A stretch of 64,000 bases of DNA from contig JACQSK010000021.1 in the NCBI GenBank assembly GCA_016205975.1, positions 106,593-170,592 of the forward strand. Reading direction: 5' to 3'. Position 1 is the first letter of the stretch; each line of letters starts with the position of its first letter. Below the pieces are notes generated by a model. The model searched no databases and was not told the DNA's origin. It saw nothing but the letters and a program-made list of their open reading frames with translations. This DNA is from Candidatus Uhrbacteria bacterium. Lineage in GTDB: Bacteria; Patescibacteriota; Patescibacteriia; UBA9934; GWF2-40-263. Shown here in pieces: positions 2 to 47,551 of this stretch. A program made the translations under genes and the position numbers.

Positions 2-1378
2 CGAGGACCCTACAGGACCGTCGGTCTCCCGACGCTGTCGGACGAGAGCAAGGCCTTCGTCAAGGAATTTGCGGACGACCCCGTGAGGACCTTCGACAGG
101 GAAATGGACTCTGTCGTGGACAGTCTCGGTCTGTTGCACCTCGTCCTGCTCGCTCGGGTGGCCAGCGGCCGTCCTCCGCTGAAGGTCGCGGGGGATTGCC
201 TTGATCTGATGCTTGAAGTGACGATGCAGGCGCAGACGCGCCAGCCGTTTGCCGAGGGGCTTCGTCTCTGGGCCAACCTGTTCCACGCCTACGGCGGAAG
301 GAAGGCTCACGGGCCGGCCCTGCGCGCGGTCGTGCACCTGCTCATTTCCATCCGCGCGGAGTCCAATCGTCTTACCCTCTTTCGACACTTGCCGTCCCTC
401 GTGGGTGAGGTCGTGCGACTCATCGTGAGCGACTCGAACGAGCTCTCGCAGATCACGCCCGTCCAGTGGGAACATCTGCGCACGAACAGTGCAAGCTCGG
501 TCCTCGCTTGGGCGCGCTTTGCCGCGCGGCACAAGATTCCGCTGTCTGAGGGAGCGATCCGACTGCGCTATGCGTTGTTCATCGCCCGGGTCCTGCAGGG
601 TCAGGGGGCTCCGCTCCTGTTCCCCGATGACGGGCTCGAACTGTGTGCGCGCCTGCTCGCGCGCGGCATCGACCTGTCCACGCTCCAGACCTTCCTTGAG
701 CGGTATGGCGAGAACCGCCTCCTTTGGCTCACGAGTCCAGGAGGACAGGCGGATGGACGCTTCCTGCGCGAGCTCTCGCGGATGTTTGCGACTTTCGCCT
801 CGGTTCCAGCCGAGGAGTTGAGCCGCATGCGCCGTGAGTGGCAGGAGCTCTGTGCCATGGACACGTCGCGCGAGTTCACGCTCAGGCAATTCTTGGAGCT
901 GGGAGGAAGTCTCGATGCGGCGCTGGAAGAGCTCTCGCGACCGGAGCCGCCTCGCGACCTCACCAACGTCGTCGAGCTGTTCCCGCCCGTGCCCATTCTC
1001 AAGCGGCCGCGGCTTGCAGTGGTGAACGTCAAGGCGGACGACCTGGAGGTCAATGACCTGGCACTGGGCCGCCATAAGGGTGAGCTCATCCAGACCGTGT
1101 GCGCCGAAGTTTGGCGCATCGGTTATCCTGGGCGTTTCGATCCAGCCCGTGCCACCGACGAGGCACGGCTCGAGCGTCTGTGCTTGCCCAAGTGTCGTGT
1201 GACTCGCGGTCAGTTCGCCGAAGCGATGGCGTGGCTCTTGGTGGAAGGCGCCATCCGCCGCGAGGGCATGGCTCTCTTTCCTGGTCCCGTCTCGCACGCC
1301 ACCGATCTTGGCCACACGATTGCTGAGCGCGCCGAGGCGCTCAAGCGCTCCGCGCTTGTCCCCGAACAGGACGCGTGA
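2..1378 (+). CDS. hypothetical protein (5' partial; reading frame open to the left edge)
   Basis: Long ORF 83..1378 has no in-frame stop back to position 2. Protein-like composition. Stop is followed by a terminator/promoter-like intergenic region. Confidence 0.45.
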   Translation, partial: RGPYRTVGLPTLSDESKAFVKEFADDPVRTFDREMDSVVDSLGLLHLVLLARVASGRPPLKVAGDCLDLMLEVTMQAQTRQPFAEGLRLWANLFHAYGGRKAHGPALRAVVHLLISIRAESNRLTLFRHLPSLVGEVVRLIVSDSNELSQITPVQWEHLRTNSASSVLAWARFAARHKIPLSEGAIRLRYALFIARVLQGQGAPLLFPDDGLELCARLLARGIDLSTLQTFLERYGENRLLWLTSPGGQADGRFLRELSRMFATFASVPAEELSRMRREWQELCAMDTSREFTLRQFLELGGSLDAALEELSRPEPPRDLTNVVELFPPVPILKRPRLAVVNVKADDLEVNDLALGRHKGELIQTVCAEVWRIGYPGRFDPARATDEARLERLCLPKCRVTRGQFAEAMAWLLVEGAIRREGMALFPGPVSHATDLGHTIAERAEALKRSALVPEQDA

Positions 1379-12704: not shown

Positions 12705-12903
12705 AACGACGCGAGAGTAGCAGGAAAATGGTTTTGTGTCAATCGCTCTCCAATCCTCCATGACGCTCCTCGTCGTCTCGACCTTGGGGCGAAGACGCAC
12801 GGACTTATGCGCACACAGATCGCCGACGAGCTCGTGAAAATGCCGGAGACGCTATAAACAAAAGCAGACTTCGTATGAAGCCTGTTTTTGTTGCTTTCGT
12901 TGA

Positions 12904-13056
12904 CTACTCAGCAGCTGGCATGTCGCCTTCTGCTGGAGCCACAGCTGGAGCTGCCTCTGGGGCAGCAGCCGCTCCGGCGCAGGTAGCACACTTTTGCTCT
13001 TCGTTGAGCGGGACGCCACTTGCTCCGCAAGCGACGCAAACACCTGATCCTTCCAT
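12904..13056 (-). CDS. small CxxC..CxxC zinc-ribbon-like protein (about 50 aa)
   Basis: Reverse-complement reading gives MEGSGVCVACGASGVPLNEEQKCATCAGAAAPEAAPAVAPAEGDMPAAE. Not in the >=60-aa ORF track. No clear RBS. Confidence 0.2.
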   Translation of the reverse strand: MEGSGVCVACGASGVPLNEEQKCATCAGAAAAPEAAPAVAPAEGDMPAAE

Positions 13057-13176
13057 AGTGATTTGCGGTTACGAATTAGCACGGGGAGTATACGTGGTTT
13101 GTTTCGATTAAGCAATACTTACTTCGTATTTTTTTTGGGGGGGGGTGCGGAAAGGGTTTTTCTTTTTCGTTTTTTG

Positions 13177-13345
13177 CAGAAGCGCATCCGTATTCGAGCT
13201 CATCTTCATAGGCGGGAGCCACTGCTCCCGCATTCGGAAGCGCATCCGCCTTCGAACGCGGCAGCAGTGGCTGCCGCCTATTCCTCCCGCTTCGGAAGCG
13301 GATGCACACACGCATTCGAACGCGGCAGCAGTGGCTGTCGCCTAT
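13177..13345 (+). repeat. three tandem ~60-bp units, each with an 8-bp-stem hairpin (gcggcagc-agtg-gctgccgc)
   Basis: Hairpins at about 13211-13231 (inverted orientation), 13258-13278 and 13322-13342. The third has a C>T change that keeps a G.U pair. Conserved flanks ggaagcgcatccg..ttcgaacgc. Confidence 0.6.
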
Positions 13346-13444
13346 GAACCTCGGGAGTGGCCTGAAGTCCTTGACCGAAATCCGTCTGTCGAGTAAGCTC
13401 AGCCCTCGCGTTTTCAAGACGCGATGCTCATTACAGGAGAAAAC

Positions 13445-14590
13445 ATGCCTCCGAAAAAGAGTCCGTCACCGGACCTTTGGATCCAGGATTTGAAGAGGAT
13501 GCTTGTTGAGCGAGAAGACGGGACCCGCTGTGGGGACTCCGACTGGGAAGAGGTCGTCAAGGGACTTCCCTATGAGAACGAGGCCGTGGGGGTCTCGTCT
13601 GATGATTGCGATGATCTCCTCCCCGAGGAGATCGGCTTCTCTGCGGAACGCCTTGTCCCTTATGTCCAGAAGCCCGTTGAGCTTTTCGCGAGCGACGCAC
13701 CCATCCTCGCGAGGCCGCGCAAAGCCGTCTTTCGTATCGTCTGGCAGCCACATTGGTCCGACGATGTGAAAACCCCTGATCGTCTCTTCGGCATCGACTG
13801 CGCTCTTGGGATCGAGCTCTCCCCACCGCTTCCCGCGTCTGCTCAGCACACGCGCATCCTCGATCCGGAGACCGGCGCGATCGTTGCAACTCTGGGCAGG
13901 CACAAGAACATCCTTTGGGTGTATGCGCAGCCTATCCACCTGCAGAATAGCGCTTTTCGCCTGAACCGGTACCGGGAGATTTTCGATGCGCTTATCACCA
14001 GGGTCATCCTCCTGCTCCCCGCGCCTGCTCTCTCGCCAGAGCAGTGGGTGCGAGAGCGCGCTCAAGCGAGGAGAGCCGTTCTTGATAGGACGTACAAAGC
14101 CTATCGGGTCCATCTCGAGTGGGAGAAAGTCGCGCTTGCGTCTGAGACCCTTATCGCGTCATTGGATCGTACCGATGAGGCCGTGTCCATCACGGACGAT
14201 ATTGAACACCTTGCCTGTGAGGTCGCAGCGTACAAGAAGCTCATAGAGCAATTCCGTGAAAAGACCGCAGCCGAGTTTGAGAAGATCCTGATGCGCCCCG
14301 ACGTTCTCTCGGCGCGCCTGTGGGGTTCGGTTCTGGTACTGGACACCCTGAAGGCTGGGTCCGTCTGGACGATCGTCATCAACCGCAACAAGGCAAGCGA
14401 TCCGATTCGCTGGTTCAAGCATGTGGAGGGCGGGCGCCAGGCGTACGCGCCGTCCTACTATCGGATGCTTCTCCCTCTTGTTGAGCTCCTCAGCAAGGGG
14501 GCATGGGAGACGTTGTTGAACGCCGCGATTCAGTCGATTGGAACCAAGCGCATCCAACCCCTCAACCCACCGACAGGAGAACCGACATGA
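13445..14590 (+). CDS. hypothetical protein, first gene of the JAB-E1-Ubl operon
   Basis: AGGAGA RBS then ATG. Stop overlaps the next start (ATGA). No recognisable domain by eye. Confidence 0.45.
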   Translation: MPPKKSPSPDLWIQDLKRMLVEREDGTRCGDSDWEEVVKGLPYENEAVGVSSDDCDDLLPEEIGFSAERLVPYVQKPVELFASDAPILARPRKAVFRIVWQPHWSDDVKTPDRLFGIDCALGIELSPPLPASAQHTRILDPETGAIVATLGRHKNILWVYAQPIHLQNSAFRLNRYREIFDALITRVILLLPAPALSPEQWVRERAQARRAVLDRTYKAYRVHLEWEKVALASETLIASLDRTDEAVSITDDIEHLACEVAAYKKLIEQFREKTAAEFEKILMRPDVLSARLWGSVLVLDTLKAGSVWTIVINRNKASDPIRWFKHVEGGRQAYAPSYYRMLLPLVELLSKGAWETLLNAAIQSIGTKRIQPLNPPTGEPT

Positions 14591-15315
14591 CCAAGCGCTT
14601 CAAGGCCTCTGCTCGCCTTATGACGAGGGCTTCGCAAACGACAAGTATGCGAGCGCTCGCACTTCCCCCCGAGGTCGAGTTCACCCAGCGCGCCATGGAG
14701 GACATGCGCATCCTGGTGGAGATCTGCGATGAGGAAGTAGGATGGTTGGGCACGGCCAAGCGCCTGGGCCGCAACTTCCTTGTGAGCGAGATTTTTCTGC
14801 CGTCTCAGCACGTCGGGCTGGCTCACACGACGATCACCAGCGCCGGACTTGAGCAGCTCATAGACGATCTCAAGCAGAAGGGGCGTCCGGGCGCGCTGGA
14901 CTCGATGCTTTTCTGGGGCCATTCCCATGCGGGCATGGAAGCCACGCCTTCACAGCAAGACGACCGCCAGATGGAAAAGTTCACGCGCCGCGCGCCCTGG
15001 TTCATCCGCGCGGTCCTGAACAAGCGCGGGCACATGCAGGTGGATGTGTACCTGTGTGATGAGGGCATGAGCTATCACAATGTGTCCTGGAGCGTCCGCG
15101 CTCCCATTCCCGCCAAGCGGCTGGCCTACTGGCAAGAGCGCGTTGCGGCATGCGTCCAGAAGGTGGAACCCCACATGGGGAGGATGCACGGACTGCCGGT
15201 GCACATGCGAAGGAGGGATGGCTTGGACCCCAAAGAGGAAGTCGATCCTGCGGAGCCGTTCCCGACTCAGGAGGAGTGGGAAGCCGCGCTCGCGAAACCC
15301 GGGAGGGTCAAGTGA
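14587..15315 (+). CDS. JAB/MPN (JAMM) metallopeptidase-domain protein
   Basis: JAMM signature in WGHSHAGMEATPSQQD (H-x-H-x7-S-x2-D) with an upstream Glu (VSEIF). AGGAGA RBS. Translationally coupled on both sides. Confidence 0.6.
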   Translation: MTKRFKASARLMTRASQTTSMRALALPPEVEFTQRAMEDMRILVEICDEEVGWLGTAKRLGRNFLVSEIFLPSQHVGLAHTTITSAGLEQLIDDLKQKGRPGALDSMLFWGHSHAGMEATPSQQDDRQMEKFTRRAPWFIRAVLNKRGHMQVDVYLCDEGMSYHNVSWSVRAPIPAKRLAYWQERVAACVQKVEPHMGRMHGLPVHMRRRDGLDPKEEVDPAEPFPTQEEWEAALAKPGRVK

Positions 15316-16004
15316 TCAACATCGCGCGGCATCACACCGTTTTCGACCCCAGGACCTTTGCGGGGAATCGGGTTGACGTGATCGGGGTTGGTGCGCTAGG
15401 ATCGCGACTGACCCTCGAGCTTGCCAGGCTTGGCATCGACGGCATCCACGTGTGGGACCCGGATACGGTCTCGGACGTGAACCTGGGCAACCAGGCTTTT
15501 GCCAAGCAGGACGTGGGCGTGAAGAAGGTCCATGCGCTCGCGCGTCTCGTCAAAGAGCACACCGGCGCCGCGCTGGTCACCCACGAAGAAGCGTGCCAGG
15601 GAGAACAGGAACTTGGGGAAGTCATCTTCCTCATGACCGACTCCCTCGCCTCGCGCAGGGAGGTCTTCCAGGCCGCCATACGGTTCAACCTCACGACCAA
15701 GCGGCTCATCGAAGCCAGGCTCGGGATCGATCAAGGACGGGCGTACTCGCTTGATCCAAACCAGGGCACCGAGGTCGAAGCCTACGCGCGGACGCTCAAT
15801 GGTGTAGCCAAGGCAGCCGTGAATTCCTGCGGCTCTCCGATCTCCGTCGGGGCCACGGCAGGCACGGCCGTCTCGATCGCCACGTGGATGTTCATCCGCT
15901 GGTGGGCCAGGGAACAGGACAAGACGACAGATGAACTGGAGAACGAGGTGATCTTCGCCCTGCGTCCCGTGATGGTCACGAGTCGCAGTTTTACCCGAGC
16001 GTGA
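15312..16004 (+). CDS. E1-like ThiF/MoeB-family adenylyltransferase (minimal, about 230 aa)
   Basis: VIGVGALGSRLTLELARLGIDGIHVWDPDTVSDVNLGNQ matches the ThiF nucleotide-binding GxGxxG...D.D.V..SNL.RQ pattern. GTG overlaps the upstream stop. GGGAGGG RBS. Confidence 0.65.
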   Translation: MINIARHHTVFDPRTFAGNRVDVIGVGALGSRLTLELARLGIDGIHVWDPDTVSDVNLGNQAFAKQDVGVKKVHALARLVKEHTGAALVTHEEACQGEQELGEVIFLMTDSLASRREVFQAAIRFNLTTKRLIEARLGIDQGRAYSLDPNQGTEVEAYARTLNGVAKAAVNSCGSPISVGATAGTAVSIATWMFIRWWAREQDKTTDELENEVIFALRPVMVTSRSFTRA

Positions 16005-16034
16005 GTGGCGATCACGAAAGTAAGGAGAAAGGCT

Positions 16035-16298
16035 ATGGCTAGCAAGGCCAAGAAGGGCAAAGAGGGCGTGAAGCAAGAAGGTGGCAAGATCAGCTTCCAG
16101 GTCTTCCCGGGCAAGCGTTGCCAGGTGGGCGTGGGTGAGGGGCAGGACGCCTACACCCTCTCGAAGCTCCTCGAGCAGGAGGGGTTCAAGGCCGACGAGA
16201 TCACGGTGAAGGTGAACGGGGAGGACGCGACCGACCTCGACCGCGTGCTCAAGAGTGGCGACAGCGTCGTCCTTCTGGAGAACGTGGAAGGCGGCTAG
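16035..16298 (+). CDS. ubiquitin-like beta-grasp protein (ThiS/MoaD-like) ending in Gly-Gly
   Basis: 87 aa, C-terminus ...ITVKVNGEDATDLDRVLKSGDSVVLLENVEGG*. Lys-rich N-terminal extension MASKAKKGKEG. AAGGAG RBS 6 nt upstream. Confidence 0.55.
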   Translation: MASKAKKGKEGVKQEGGKISFQVFPGKRCQVGVGEGQDAYTLSKLLEQEGFKADEITVKVNGEDATDLDRVLKSGDSVVLLENVEGG

Positions 16299-16376
16299 TC
16301 TCTCTCTTGCGACAAAACGGCGGGGCGCTCGTGGGACGATCCGCGAGGCCCCGTTTTTCCTTCAGGAGGAATGGTC

Positions 16377-17498
16377 ATGGAAGTTACCTTTGTTGGAACG
16401 ATGCCGTGGGAAAACCCGCAAGACACGCTCAAGTCGCTTGTGTGCAAGGAGCTCCTGCCCGTTGTCGGGAAGTCCGTCGTCATCCACTTCCCCCTGCAGC
16501 GCAACCAACCCGATAGCGTTGAACTCATGGACGCTGCGCGAGACACATCAGGAGCGTTCCACGTGTTCCTTCTGGGCAGGTTTCCCCCTTGGGATCGGAC
16601 ATTCTATGTGCCTTGGGAGCCGTATCGAGAGGCGCTGGGCGGATCGCTTGTTGGGTCCCCGATCTACGCGGAAAGGAATCGAAAGGTGCCGATGGGGGAG
16701 CAGGTCGGCGATGTCGTCTGCTTGCGCGTGCGCATGCAATACCGAGAAGATGCCTCCACTCAACTCTGGATGGATCGCATCTGTGATCTCGCGCAGCACC
16801 TGAAGAAAGGGGACAAGCAACCTTCCGGACAGCCTGGGAAGACGGCACGACAGATGGCGGAAGCCCTGGTGCCCTACCACTGGAAAGAGGCCGTACAGAC
16901 AAAGACGGAAAAGCTTCGATGTCTGCGAAAGAACAGAGGAGCATTGTTGGAGGCCTTCCTTCAGGCCACGCAAGAAGCTGAGCGTTTTGTGCAGAGCATC
17001 AGGGGTGAGGGGGCGGAGCGCGGCGCGTTGGAATGCCAGGAGGAGGTTGATCGTCTGTTCCAGCATCCCTTGTTCCAGGACGCGTGGTGCGTGTCTAACG
17101 GTAGTCCGTTGGGCTTCGGCGAAACCCCTGTGCTGTTGGTCAGGACAAAGGAAATCCTCGTGAGCATGAAGAGAGGGGATGGAGGCGTCGAGCGTCGCCG
17201 GATCGGACGATTCGAAATTCGCATTCCGTTCGTTCAGGATCACAACTGGGGCAACAACGTCCACTTCAGGAATCTTGACCGCTTGGTCGCCAACCAGCAA
17301 GGGCCGCACATCGACGATCAGGGTTGGCCGTGTTTTGGGACAGGAGAGCAGATCGTGGACGGCCTCTTTAAGGAAGGGCGGCTGGCCGAGCTCGTGGAGT
17401 TCTGCCTGCACTACCTCACGCGGGTCAATACCGACGACGGCTGGGGGAAGAACATTCATGAATGGCCTTTGGTGGAAGACACTCCCACCGAGGGATAA
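16377..17498 (+). CDS. hypothetical protein, last gene of the operon (weak E2-like H..(8)..C motif, unconfirmed)
   Basis: AGGAGG RBS. Segment GPHIDDQGWPCFGTG loosely resembles a UBC HPN...G.xC active-site stretch. This is inference only. Confidence 0.4.
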   Translation: MEVTFVGTMPWENPQDTLKSLVCKELLPVVGKSVVIHFPLQRNQPDSVELMDAARDTSGAFHVFLLGRFPPWDRTFYVPWEPYREALGGSLVGSPIYAERNRKVPMGEQVGDVVCLRVRMQYREDASTQLWMDRICDLAQHLKKGDKQPSGQPGKTARQMAEALVPYHWKEAVQTKTEKLRCLRKNRGALLEAFLQATQEAERFVQSIRGEGAERGALECQEEVDRLFQHPLFQDAWCVSNGSPLGFGETPVLLVRTKEILVSMKRGDGGVERRRIGRFEIRIPFVQDHNWGNNVHFRNLDRLVANQQGPHIDDQGWPCFGTGEQIVDGLFKEGRLAELVEFCLHYLTRVNTDDGWGKNIHEWPLVEDTPTEG

Positions 17499-17550
17499 CG
17501 CACACGGTCGCACAGCGGCCGTGTTTTTCTTTTTCGTTTTTTGAAGTAAG

Positions 17551-18099: not shown

Positions 18100-18189
18100 T
18101 GGAGCGGGTAGCGGGAGTCGAACCCTCTGGTAACCTCAATGATCTCCCAGGAAAGATCGCCGATTCCGCTCAACCTCGCGAAAACCCGC
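18100..18189 (-). tRNA. atypical tRNA-like element (about 90 nt, encoded CCA, discriminator U)
   Basis: Minus-strand RNA ends ...GAGGGUUCGACUCCCGCUACCCGCUCCA. 7-bp acceptor pairing of GCGGGUU with UACCCGC. Candidate anticodon hairpin GAUCU/AGAUC with an 8-nt loop. D-arm and variable region are non-canonical. Coordinates +/-2. Confidence 0.3.
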
Positions 18190-30983: not shown

Positions 30984-31439
30984 ATGACACGTCAAGACTT
31001 CGCCCTGGCGAGCCGGGGCCTGCGCGCGGATTTCGTAAGCGAGATGACCTCGGTCGCTCGGAAGGACATCAACCGTCTCGACGAGGCACTCGATGACGCC
31101 CGCAGCCACGCCGGCGTCGCTCTCGTCGACGGTGACAACGCGGCCGACGAGGCATGAACGTTACGGCGGCGGAACGTTTCCCCGGGGAAACGTTCGCCGC
31201 CTGCACCCTCGGCCGATCGGCCCCCGGCCGACACGCCGCTCGCCCGGCTGGTCGCCGACTTCGAGAAGATCACCGAGCGCTTCGCCTGCCTCGCGAAGGA
31301 CGCGGATGGCGCAACCGCGCTCGGGCGGGACGAGGTCCAGGGGCTCATCGGTCGCGTCTACCCGTACGCGGCCAAGGTCGAGGAAGCGATCGACGACATC
31401 GGGCTGCACGTCGGGATCGATGACGTCCGCGGGGAGAGC

Positions 31440-31494
31440 TAGCCGTCTTGTTTAGCCGGCTAAACAAGACGGCTACCGTCACGCGAGGCGTGAC
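31440..31494. terminator. 36-bp perfect palindrome (tagccgtcttgtttagcc|ggctaaacaagacggcta) plus adjacent 7-bp-stem hairpin
   Basis: Read directly. Lies between the interrupted small gene and the PilZ gene. Likely a bidirectional terminator or operator. Confidence 0.45.
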
Positions 31495-46803: not shown

Positions 46804-47551
46804 TCGAAAAGGAAAGGCCGGACGAGGAGAATATCCAGTCCGGTCTTTTTGTTTCTTGCGACGCGAAGGACGACTGTCTGGCGCGCCGGTCTTGCGGGCG
46901 ATGCCCAATCGCGTCGATCAGCCCAGTAGCCAGCCACAATCTGCGTGACGGCGCCGCCGGTCCTCACTCGCGAGGATCGCGTCGACCTCGAGACCGAGCT
47001 GGATCCGCGCACGGACCTCGCCGTCGCGCTGGTAGATGGCGTCCGTGGCCTGGCTCTCGGCGGTGTCGCAGCGACCGCATCGATGCGGAAGGAGCGTCGA
47101 CGAGCCGTCCGGCCAGAGCCAGATATGGCGAGCCTCGTGCGAAATCGAGATTGCCGTCTCGAGAACCCCGTGTTGCTCAGGCGGAACCGCTAGAATCGCG
47201 ACGCGATGGAGACGCTGAGTGATGCATGCCAGGGCGCCGGGGCCGCACGCCGTCGGCGAAAAGGCGATCGTGAGAACCTTCCTTCGGACCGCAGCGTGCT
47301 CCTCGGGCACGTAGTGCTGCAACAGCCCGAGCGCCGTGCGAATGACGTGTACCCCCACGGGCGTGAAGCCCACCAGAGGAATCCCGCGGAACGCTGCCCG
47401 AGGGTAACGGGGTGCGACGGCCGCGTGCATGAGACCTCCGCCCGCAGCTTACACGCCTGGGCGCGCGTTCGGGATCCATGCGCGAGGCCGCTCCGATCGG
47501 AGCGGCCTGCCGGTCCACTGGATCCAGCTCGACAACGAAGAAACCGCTCGC

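Follow-up and report, generated by a model that had tools for sequence, protein, structure and literature searches.

The closest described counterparts of the hairpins treated here are the REP/BIME elements of E. coli and Pseudomonas, with which they share the form of G+C-rich imperfect palindromes of ~24-29 nt with an asymmetric conserved tail, an extragenic location, the occurrence of hairpins at gene 3' ends (in this case in other genomes), and an alternating orientation (B1 inverted, B2 and B3 direct, as listed below) with short linkers and a compensatory stem change which keeps the pairing. They differ from REP/BIME in number, with three copies here versus tens to hundreds and none elsewhere in the 64 kb, in that no RAYT was seen (in a Pfam scan of the ORFs around the locus) and no GTAG-type 5' motif was identified, and in their host, a small-genome CPR bacterium. 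A second comparison can be made with MITEs possessing long terminal inverted repeats, such as the Correia elements of Neisseria and ERIC, which are resembled by the segment 13205-13348 with its 38-nt inverted ends and intergenic location near promoters. Unlike these elements, the segment has no recognisable target-site duplication and no second full-length copy was found, only the 24-nt hairpin being recurrent. CPR/Patescibacteria genomes are small and dense, and a literature search found no description of REP-like elements in them. A copied, lineage-specific stem-loop family together with a 255-nt spacer made of duplicated terminator modules would show that CPR genomes both generate and tolerate such repeats.

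The locus is situated in a 64,000-nt stretch of the genome of a Candidatus Uhrbacteria bacterium, hereafter the window. A preliminary description of this window, made from the sequence, reported a T8/G9 homopolymer junction, a repeated 21-mer and a series of hairpins upstream of a Ubl operon; all of these are located where it placed them and are non-random, and among the interpretations it offered the REP-like option fits best, the attenuator RNA and phase variation being disfavoured. The span of these features, 13129-13345, lies between two outward-facing predicted -35 boxes (13115 and 13371) and is thus upstream of both predicted transcripts, one leading leftward into a small zinc-ribbon gene and the other rightward into the Ubl operon plus ruvC. 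When 13040-13460 was searched with the regular expression TTGNNN-16..18-TANNNT, only two matches were obtained, namely 13371-13399 on the + strand and 13115-13087 on the - strand, and both predicted promoters are kept in relatives whose intergenic DNA has otherwise diverged; the promoter positions given here are predicted from this conservation and from the consensus. On balance, the 255-nt spacer between them (13116-13370) is probably a lineage-specific stretch placed between two conserved divergent transcription units.

The locus is present in five Logan assemblies from different runs (L001-L005), whose sequences agree at every base of 13128-13460, T8G9, the 21-mer and all the hairpins included. 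This agreement rules out assembly artefacts as the source of the features and shows a constant homopolymer length at the consensus level. The independent contig L001 spans only ~5.8-19.5 kb of the window. The contigs L002-L005 start between 13017 and 13128, meaning that four of the five Logan contigs break within the small gene or exactly at T8, which suggests a coverage or assembly difficulty there.

The features on the right side of the spacer are as follows:

13371-13399, + strand: predicted Ubl operon promoter, with the -35 box TTGACC (13371-13376), a 17-nt spacer and the -10 box TAAGCT (13394-13399)

13406-13444, + strand: conserved operon leader, with the 5'-terminal hairpin TCGCGT..ACGCGA (13406-13424), the invariant ATGCTCATTACAGGAG and a Shine-Dalgarno sequence (13435-13439)

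13445-17498, + strand: five-gene operon (Pfam and L001 gene calls) coding for a 381-aa unknown protein, a JAB-like protein, a ThiF-type E1, a ThiS-type Ubl and a 373-aa unknown protein

Pfam recognizes the JAB-like protein (weakly), the ThiF-type E1 and the ThiS-type Ubl, as well as RuvC following the operon, and PADLOC yields a match for the E1 only (E1-E2); the first (381 aa) and the last (373 aa) operon proteins have no Pfam or PADLOC match. The first protein is identical to MBI4438142.1 from a Candidatus Uhrbacteria MAG. The same five genes followed by ruvC are found in two other lineages (L006; L007-L012). In the comparison of L006 and L007 with the window, the tblastx HSPs for E1 and RuvC are ~76-83% identical; the first gene has homologs of only 39-44% identity, and the last operon gene (373 aa) also looks less conserved among the three lineages. 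The control region 13371-13444 is common to all three lineages with their so dissimilar first gene. The promoter has the counterparts TTGACA-17-TAAGCT in L007 and TTGACA-17-TAAACT in L006, and in the leader it is the hairpin loop which varies among the three lineages, the other columns of alignment A3 being invariant.

Upstream of the promoter, the DNA of L006 and L007 no longer aligns with the window. Both possess a terminator-type hairpin directly upstream of the -35 box, which is located after rpoC in L007 and coincides with the end of the contig in L006, and upstream of that box neither contains repeats, the 21-mer or T8G9. Conservation of the array structure was checked in related genomes and is lacking, with no hairpin array upstream of the orthologous operons in L006 and L007-L012. 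The real control elements of the operon thus appear to be the conserved promoter (13371-13399) and the leader hairpin (13406-13424), not the conspicuous repeats. Within the operon, between the Ubl gene and the last gene (16318-16358, + strand), there is also a terminator- or attenuator-like hairpin CGGGGC...GCCCCG followed by TTTTT.

On the left side, the following features were identified:

12857-12892, no strand assigned: predicted bidirectional terminator hairpin 3' of the small gene (inverted repeat I5, matched by the terminator scan on the - strand)

12904-13056, - strand: gene coding for a 50-aa CxxC...CxxC zinc-ribbon-like protein (homologs, conserved open frame)

13087-13115, - strand: predicted small-gene promoter, with the -35 box TTGCTT (13115-13110), a 17-nt spacer and the -10 box TATACT (13092-13087)

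This gene lies in a 683-nt region which is intergenic according to the gene calls, and none was called in the Logan contig. The exact 50-aa protein has no match in the protein collection, and homologs of 46-50 aa with 76-88% identity are encoded in other Uhrbacteria and Patescibacteria MAGs. In the related loci L061-L065 the frame is open, with indels in multiples of 3 and differing stop codons, and the promoter pattern TTGCnn-17-TATACT and a nearly invariant leader, GCTAATTCGTAACCGCAAATCACT, are kept, as is the terminator hairpin, which folds with -16.6 and -16.3 kcal/mol on the two strands. The GC3 of the gene is atypical (low). It represents a conserved small zinc-ribbon gene missed here by gene callers. 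Two other ORFs over 12852-13115, of 87 aa (- strand) and 78 aa (+ strand), were discarded, as neither has family matches and the 87-aa frame is closed in L061. Between 12904 and 13115 (- strand), the leader and the first ~14 codons hardly vary in their nucleotides, not even at synonymous sites, and there is no Shine-Dalgarno sequence, a pattern suggestive of a constraint on the RNA or of an unusual mode of translation initiation.

The relatives of the small gene have tRNA-Lys or other genes upstream, and even the closest of them (88% identity) is preceded by different DNA. The relatives of the two flanking units all lack T8G9, the upstream 21-mer and the hairpins, their upstream DNA resembles the junction no more than shuffled controls do, and synteny with them is confined to the block of the operon plus ruvC, which together points to the spacer being a lineage-specific rearrangement junction. 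A search for closer relatives with this junction gave none.

The 21-mer takes part in two terminator-like structures:

13147-13176, + strand: upstream 21-mer copy (13156-13176, an exact repeat), which together with GCGGAAAGGG is predicted to form a weak hairpin followed by U6

17502-17543, + strand: predicted operon intrinsic terminator, with the stem-loop 17502-17524 and the downstream 21-mer copy (17523-17543) as its U-tract

The 21-mer, GTTTTTCTTTTTCGTTTTTTG, is found exactly at 13156-13176 and 17523-17543 and nowhere else in the window with up to three mismatches (0 matches in 100 shuffles), and is the sole dispersed exact repeat of at least 16 nt in the window outside local arrays. Its recurrence upstream of ruvC, as originally noted, is therefore exact, with the qualification that on the ruvC side it constitutes the U-tract of the conserved terminator of the operon. 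The terminator stem begins 4 nt past the stop codon (17496-17498) of the last operon gene, scores 10 pairs, 7 of them G-C, in the terminator scan, folds with -16.7 kcal/mol and is followed by TTTTTCTTTTT. L006 and L007 contain the hairpin CACGGTC..GGCCGTG and then TTTTCTTTTTG after the orthologous gene, and in the alignment the downstream 21-mer copy pairs with GTGTTTTCTTTTTG of the relatives; the presence of the same hairpin followed by GTGTTTTCTTTTTG in the relatives is what assigns the ruvC-side 21-mer to the U-tract of a conserved intrinsic terminator. In this lineage the U-tract is ~8-9 nt longer than in the relatives. Because the upstream copy, located 290 nt upstream of the operon, includes this lineage-specific extension, it is, judging by the sequences, a recent local duplicate of the operon terminator's U-tract; the DNA upstream of the operon in L006 and L007 contains no 21-mer. 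The upstream copy with its stem matches the terminator scan with 10 pairs (3 G-C, many G.U) and folds with -9.1 kcal/mol (z = -2.4).

The likeness to known intrinsic terminators holds for the 17523 copy, a U-tract after a 10-bp G+C-rich stem behind a stop codon which is kept in relatives, and extends to the upstream 21-mer, whose weak stem gives it the same architecture, and to one member of the hairpin family described below (L015), which carries a T7 tail. By contrast, the three hairpins in the window have no U-tracts and follow no gene, and the stem of the upstream 21-mer is weak (-9.1 kcal/mol), with no + strand transcript predicted there.

Exact 21-nt direct repeats which bracket the array and five genes, in a block whose flanking genes differ from those of the relatives, could also be seen as attL/attR-like repeats or as a target-site duplication at the ends of a 4.37-kb mobile cassette made up of the array and the Ubl operon. 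Such a cassette is very unlikely, given that the right repeat is contiguous with the terminator hairpin and that the operon-ruvC junction is conserved in the relatives, which makes it ancestral rather than an insertion junction. As an empty-site test, the relatives keep operon, terminator and ruvC contiguous; they have no matching repeat upstream of the operon, and Pfam detects no integrase or transposase between the repeats. A phage origin of the 21-mer was likewise rejected, as its 11 viral matches come from three unrelated AT-rich phage sequences (GC 0.26-0.35) with dissimilar flanks.

The homopolymer junction is located to the left of the upstream 21-mer:

13129-13145, no strand assigned: T8G9 junction (T8 13129-13136, G9 13137-13145), found in the window and five Logan assemblies and absent from all relatives of both flanking units

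It is present just as first described, with G9 being the longest G/C run in the 64-kb window and T8 being among the longest runs. In the orientation of the small gene it reads C9A8 and occupies ~-49 to -65 from the predicted TSS of that gene, its A8 face being on the promoter-proximal side, where relatives carry a UP-like A/T stretch upstream of the small gene's -35 box. A tRNA-Lys remnant at C9A8 was considered and rejected, since local alignments were no better than those of shuffles and ARAGORN finds nothing there. With G9 adjoining T8 near promoters, the junction resembles the poly-G/poly-C contingency loci of Neisseria, Haemophilus and Campylobacter, and slipped-strand changes in T8 or G9 could be imagined to toggle the expression of the operon or the small gene, as was originally proposed; the record length of G9 and the start of Logan contig L005 exactly at the tract would agree with such a switch. 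Unlike in those loci, however, the tract lies outside every conserved ORF and both -35/-10 spacers, 226 nt away from the operon -35 box and upstream of the small gene's -35 box with A8 promoter-proximal, and it has the same length in the five assemblies, made from different runs, as in the window, although these are consensus sequences in which minority length variants are hidden. Phase variation at this site is accordingly most improbable.

The hairpin array itself consists of the following features:

13177-13197, + strand: A1, left part of repeat unit 1 (CAGAAGCGCATCCGTATTCGA, family D1)

13208-13236, - strand: B1, inverted hairpin core, G variant (stem-loop 13212-13231)

13253-13281, + strand: B2, direct hairpin core, C variant (stem-loop 13258-13277)

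13317-13345, + strand: B3, direct hairpin core with one G.U pair (stem-loop 13322-13341)

13208-13281, no strand assigned: near-perfect 74-nt palindrome of B1, A2 and B2 (inverted repeat I2)

13287-13317, + strand: two small linker hairpins, the self-palindrome CCGCTTCGGAAGCGG (13287-13301) and GGATGC-ACACAC-GCATTC (13300-13317), in the direct reading

The 29-nt core, CGAAYGCGGSAGCAGTGGCTSYCGCCTAT, is thus present in three copies separated by linkers of 16-35 nt, and the inversion of one copy, already noticed in the preliminary description, corresponds to B1. Each core has an 8-bp stem and a 4-nt loop and folds with -14 to -17 kcal/mol, and the variation within the array comprises one G-C to C-G double change and one G.U pair. 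Three tandem units of ~60 bp had been described; the three 8-bp hairpins are indeed there, but TRF finds only two true tandem units with a period of 64 (units 2 and 3), unit 1 having its left 21 nt in common with the other units and its hairpin inverted. Within the left parts, a 12-nt exact match links 13179-13190 to 13237-13248. The inverted hairpin of unit 1 gives rise to two palindromes, one of 74 nt with 35-nt arms, 86% complementary, and a 4-nt spacer (DNA fold -33.2 kcal/mol, z = -9.3), and the other of 144 nt (13205-13348) with 38-nt inverted ends, 84% complementary (DNA-fold z = -8.0).

The strong RNA fold of the region (z = -5.6 on the + strand), the one compensatory pair and one + strand G.U, and the weak hairpin plus U6 (13147-13176), which could terminate transcription, would suit a cis-regulatory RNA or attenuator, with the hairpins located within an extended 5' leader of the Ubl operon and controlling read-through. 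This is nevertheless highly improbable, as the array (13177-13348) lies upstream of the conserved -35 box at 13371, a promoter predicted from conservation and consensus, and the TTGNNN-16..18-TANNNT scan yields no promoter-like site further upstream on the + strand, though one of unconventional sequence is conceivable there. The conserved leader contains a separate hairpin (13406-13424), the array is absent from the relatives, and the - strand folds almost equally well (z = -4.3), as is expected of DNA palindromes. There is no Rfam match either: Rfam 15 gave nothing at the gathering score and, below the threshold, only junk generic miRNA-type hairpins. The G.U-compensating change had been taken as a sign of RNA-level structure; both a G.U and a compensatory pair are present, but the former is no evidence for RNA, because any single transition in a stem produces a G.U on one of the strands, so that its occurrence on the + strand is 50:50 and uninformative. 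B3 folds with -14.3 kcal/mol on the + strand and -9.7 on the - strand.

Two further classifications of the array were rejected. A motif like the DNA-uptake sequences does not fit, since the 8-nt arms are not over-represented in the window (19 observed vs 20.3 expected). Neither does a CRISPR mini-array, since only two of the copies run in the same direction (31 nt, period 64), with the third one inverted, the would-be spacers contain the repeated A elements, and single copies are found after stop codons elsewhere.

The family to which the hairpins belong has the consensus GCGGSAGC-AGTG-GCTSYCGC-CTAT and forms a stem-loop of 24-29 nt. An exact-pattern scan of 185,579 GTDB representative genomes, a set to which the source genome does not belong, gave at most two exact copies per representative: another Uhrbacteria MAG contains two and an Actinomycetota MAG a single one. 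In L013 (Uhrbacteria) the hairpin is intercistronic and abuts a TAG stop codon 9 nt before the next start, and in L015 (Uhrbacteria) it is located between convergent genes and followed by T7, with TTTATTTATT on the other strand, which makes it a probable bidirectional terminator. A further copy with the CCTAT tail and a perfect palindrome was found in a Hainich groundwater contig (L033), ~29 nt past the gyrB stop codon. Each of these three copies outside the window, all of them from Uhrbacteria or groundwater contigs, is within 30 nt of a stop codon. The metagenomes contained 43 matches to a shorter 21-nt pattern, 40 of them without the CCTAT tail; L032 and L039 keep the tail but have a G.T in the stem and lie in apparently coding sequence. 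Altogether 42 of the 43 were rejected as family members, since either the tail is lost, the palindrome is broken or the match is L032 or L039; they are mostly G+C-rich and regarded as chance or coding look-alikes. The match in the Actinomycetota MAG (L014 1961-1986) is identical over 26 nt to B2/B3 of the window (CGCGGCAGCAGTGGCTGCCGCCTATG) and was rejected too, being a single copy in an unrelated phylum and probably a chance match.

When searched with a covariance model, neither the 64-kb window nor the other loci examined, among them ~50 kb of distinct sequence from relatives, yielded an additional copy. The six copies agree in stem and loop save for one G-C/C-G compensatory pair and one G.U, and all of them are intergenic, none of the three in the window being next to a stop codon. 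The hairpin is a low-copy, lineage-restricted, terminator-type stem-loop copied to non-homologous sites, REP-like in form and not in number. The suggestion of REP-like elements therefore holds with regard to the palindrome form and the clustering and does not hold with regard to the copy number.

That the loop AGTG does not vary across genomes may point to recognition of its sequence, for which a terminator acting by structure alone would have no need. On this basis, loop and stem being invariant at non-homologous sites, the hairpin might be a Uhrbacteria-specific recognition element for a DNA-/RNA-binding or mobilising protein, with the cluster acting as a supercoil-sensitive cruciform or operator which couples the divergent promoters and gates the Ubl operon linked to ruvC, although this is quite unlikely. 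Unlikely as well is an operator array in which the 8-4-8 palindromes, with their centres at ~-74, -138 and -184 from the predicted operon TSS, bind a dimeric transcription factor controlling the Ubl operon, the small gene or both. Perfect dyads with an invariant loop and stem, a site between divergent promoters as is typical for operators, and a B2-B3 spacing of 64 nt, or about six helical turns, agree with it. The same 24-mer, however, is found elsewhere directly after stop codons or between convergent genes, not at promoters, the relatives keep the promoter and the leader without the sites, and no regulator gene is adjacent; it is the stop-codon contexts of the other copies and the absence from relatives which disfavour the operators envisaged in the preliminary description. 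The earlier proposal of an RNA-level cis-regulator or attenuator fares no better, with the conserved promoter 3' of the repeats, a different hairpin in the conserved leader and no repeats in the relatives.

We favour, with modest confidence, a reading in which the species-specific spacer between the divergent promoters holds copied terminator-type modules arranged as a BIME-like cluster, whose structural role would be generic at most. The spacer would have been assembled from two kinds of such modules, the first being a duplicate of the operon terminator's U-tract, which here pairs with a purine run into a weak hairpin followed by U6, and the second, three copies (one inverted) of a low-copy dispersed Uhrbacteria stem-loop, while T8G9 would be part of the same junction. 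The modules may owe their presence at a rearrangement junction to local duplication or to REP-like copying and presumably belong to neither mRNA. Any function would be of a general kind, for instance blocking stray transcription or providing a palindrome that is prone to cruciform formation or bound by protein, rather than that of a dedicated Ubl switch. Against the cluster of copied modules stand the absence of other copies in the 64 kb and the maximum of two exact ones per GTDB representative, a low number which shows that this is not a classical high-copy REP family, as well as the lack of a RAYT/IS200-like gene among the ORFs around the locus, the position of the window copies away from stop codons, unlike that of the other family copies, and the AGTG loop being invariant across genomes.

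Several observations were made elsewhere in the window. The GC content, ~0.59-0.63 over 1-21 kb, reaches 0.69-0.77 in most of the 21-60 kb part, falling back near 27-29 kb and 38 kb; the rise from ~21000, unusual for CPR, could reflect a chimeric contig or acquired DNA. At 18100-18189 (- strand), ARAGORN predicts a tRNA-Arg (GCG) of 90 nt, which is unusually long for tRNA-Arg. The high-GC part contains perfect palindromes of 24-36 nt, e.g. TAGCCGTCTTGTTTAGCCGGCTAAACAAGACGGCTA, at 31440-31475, 31172-31195 and 47485-47508.
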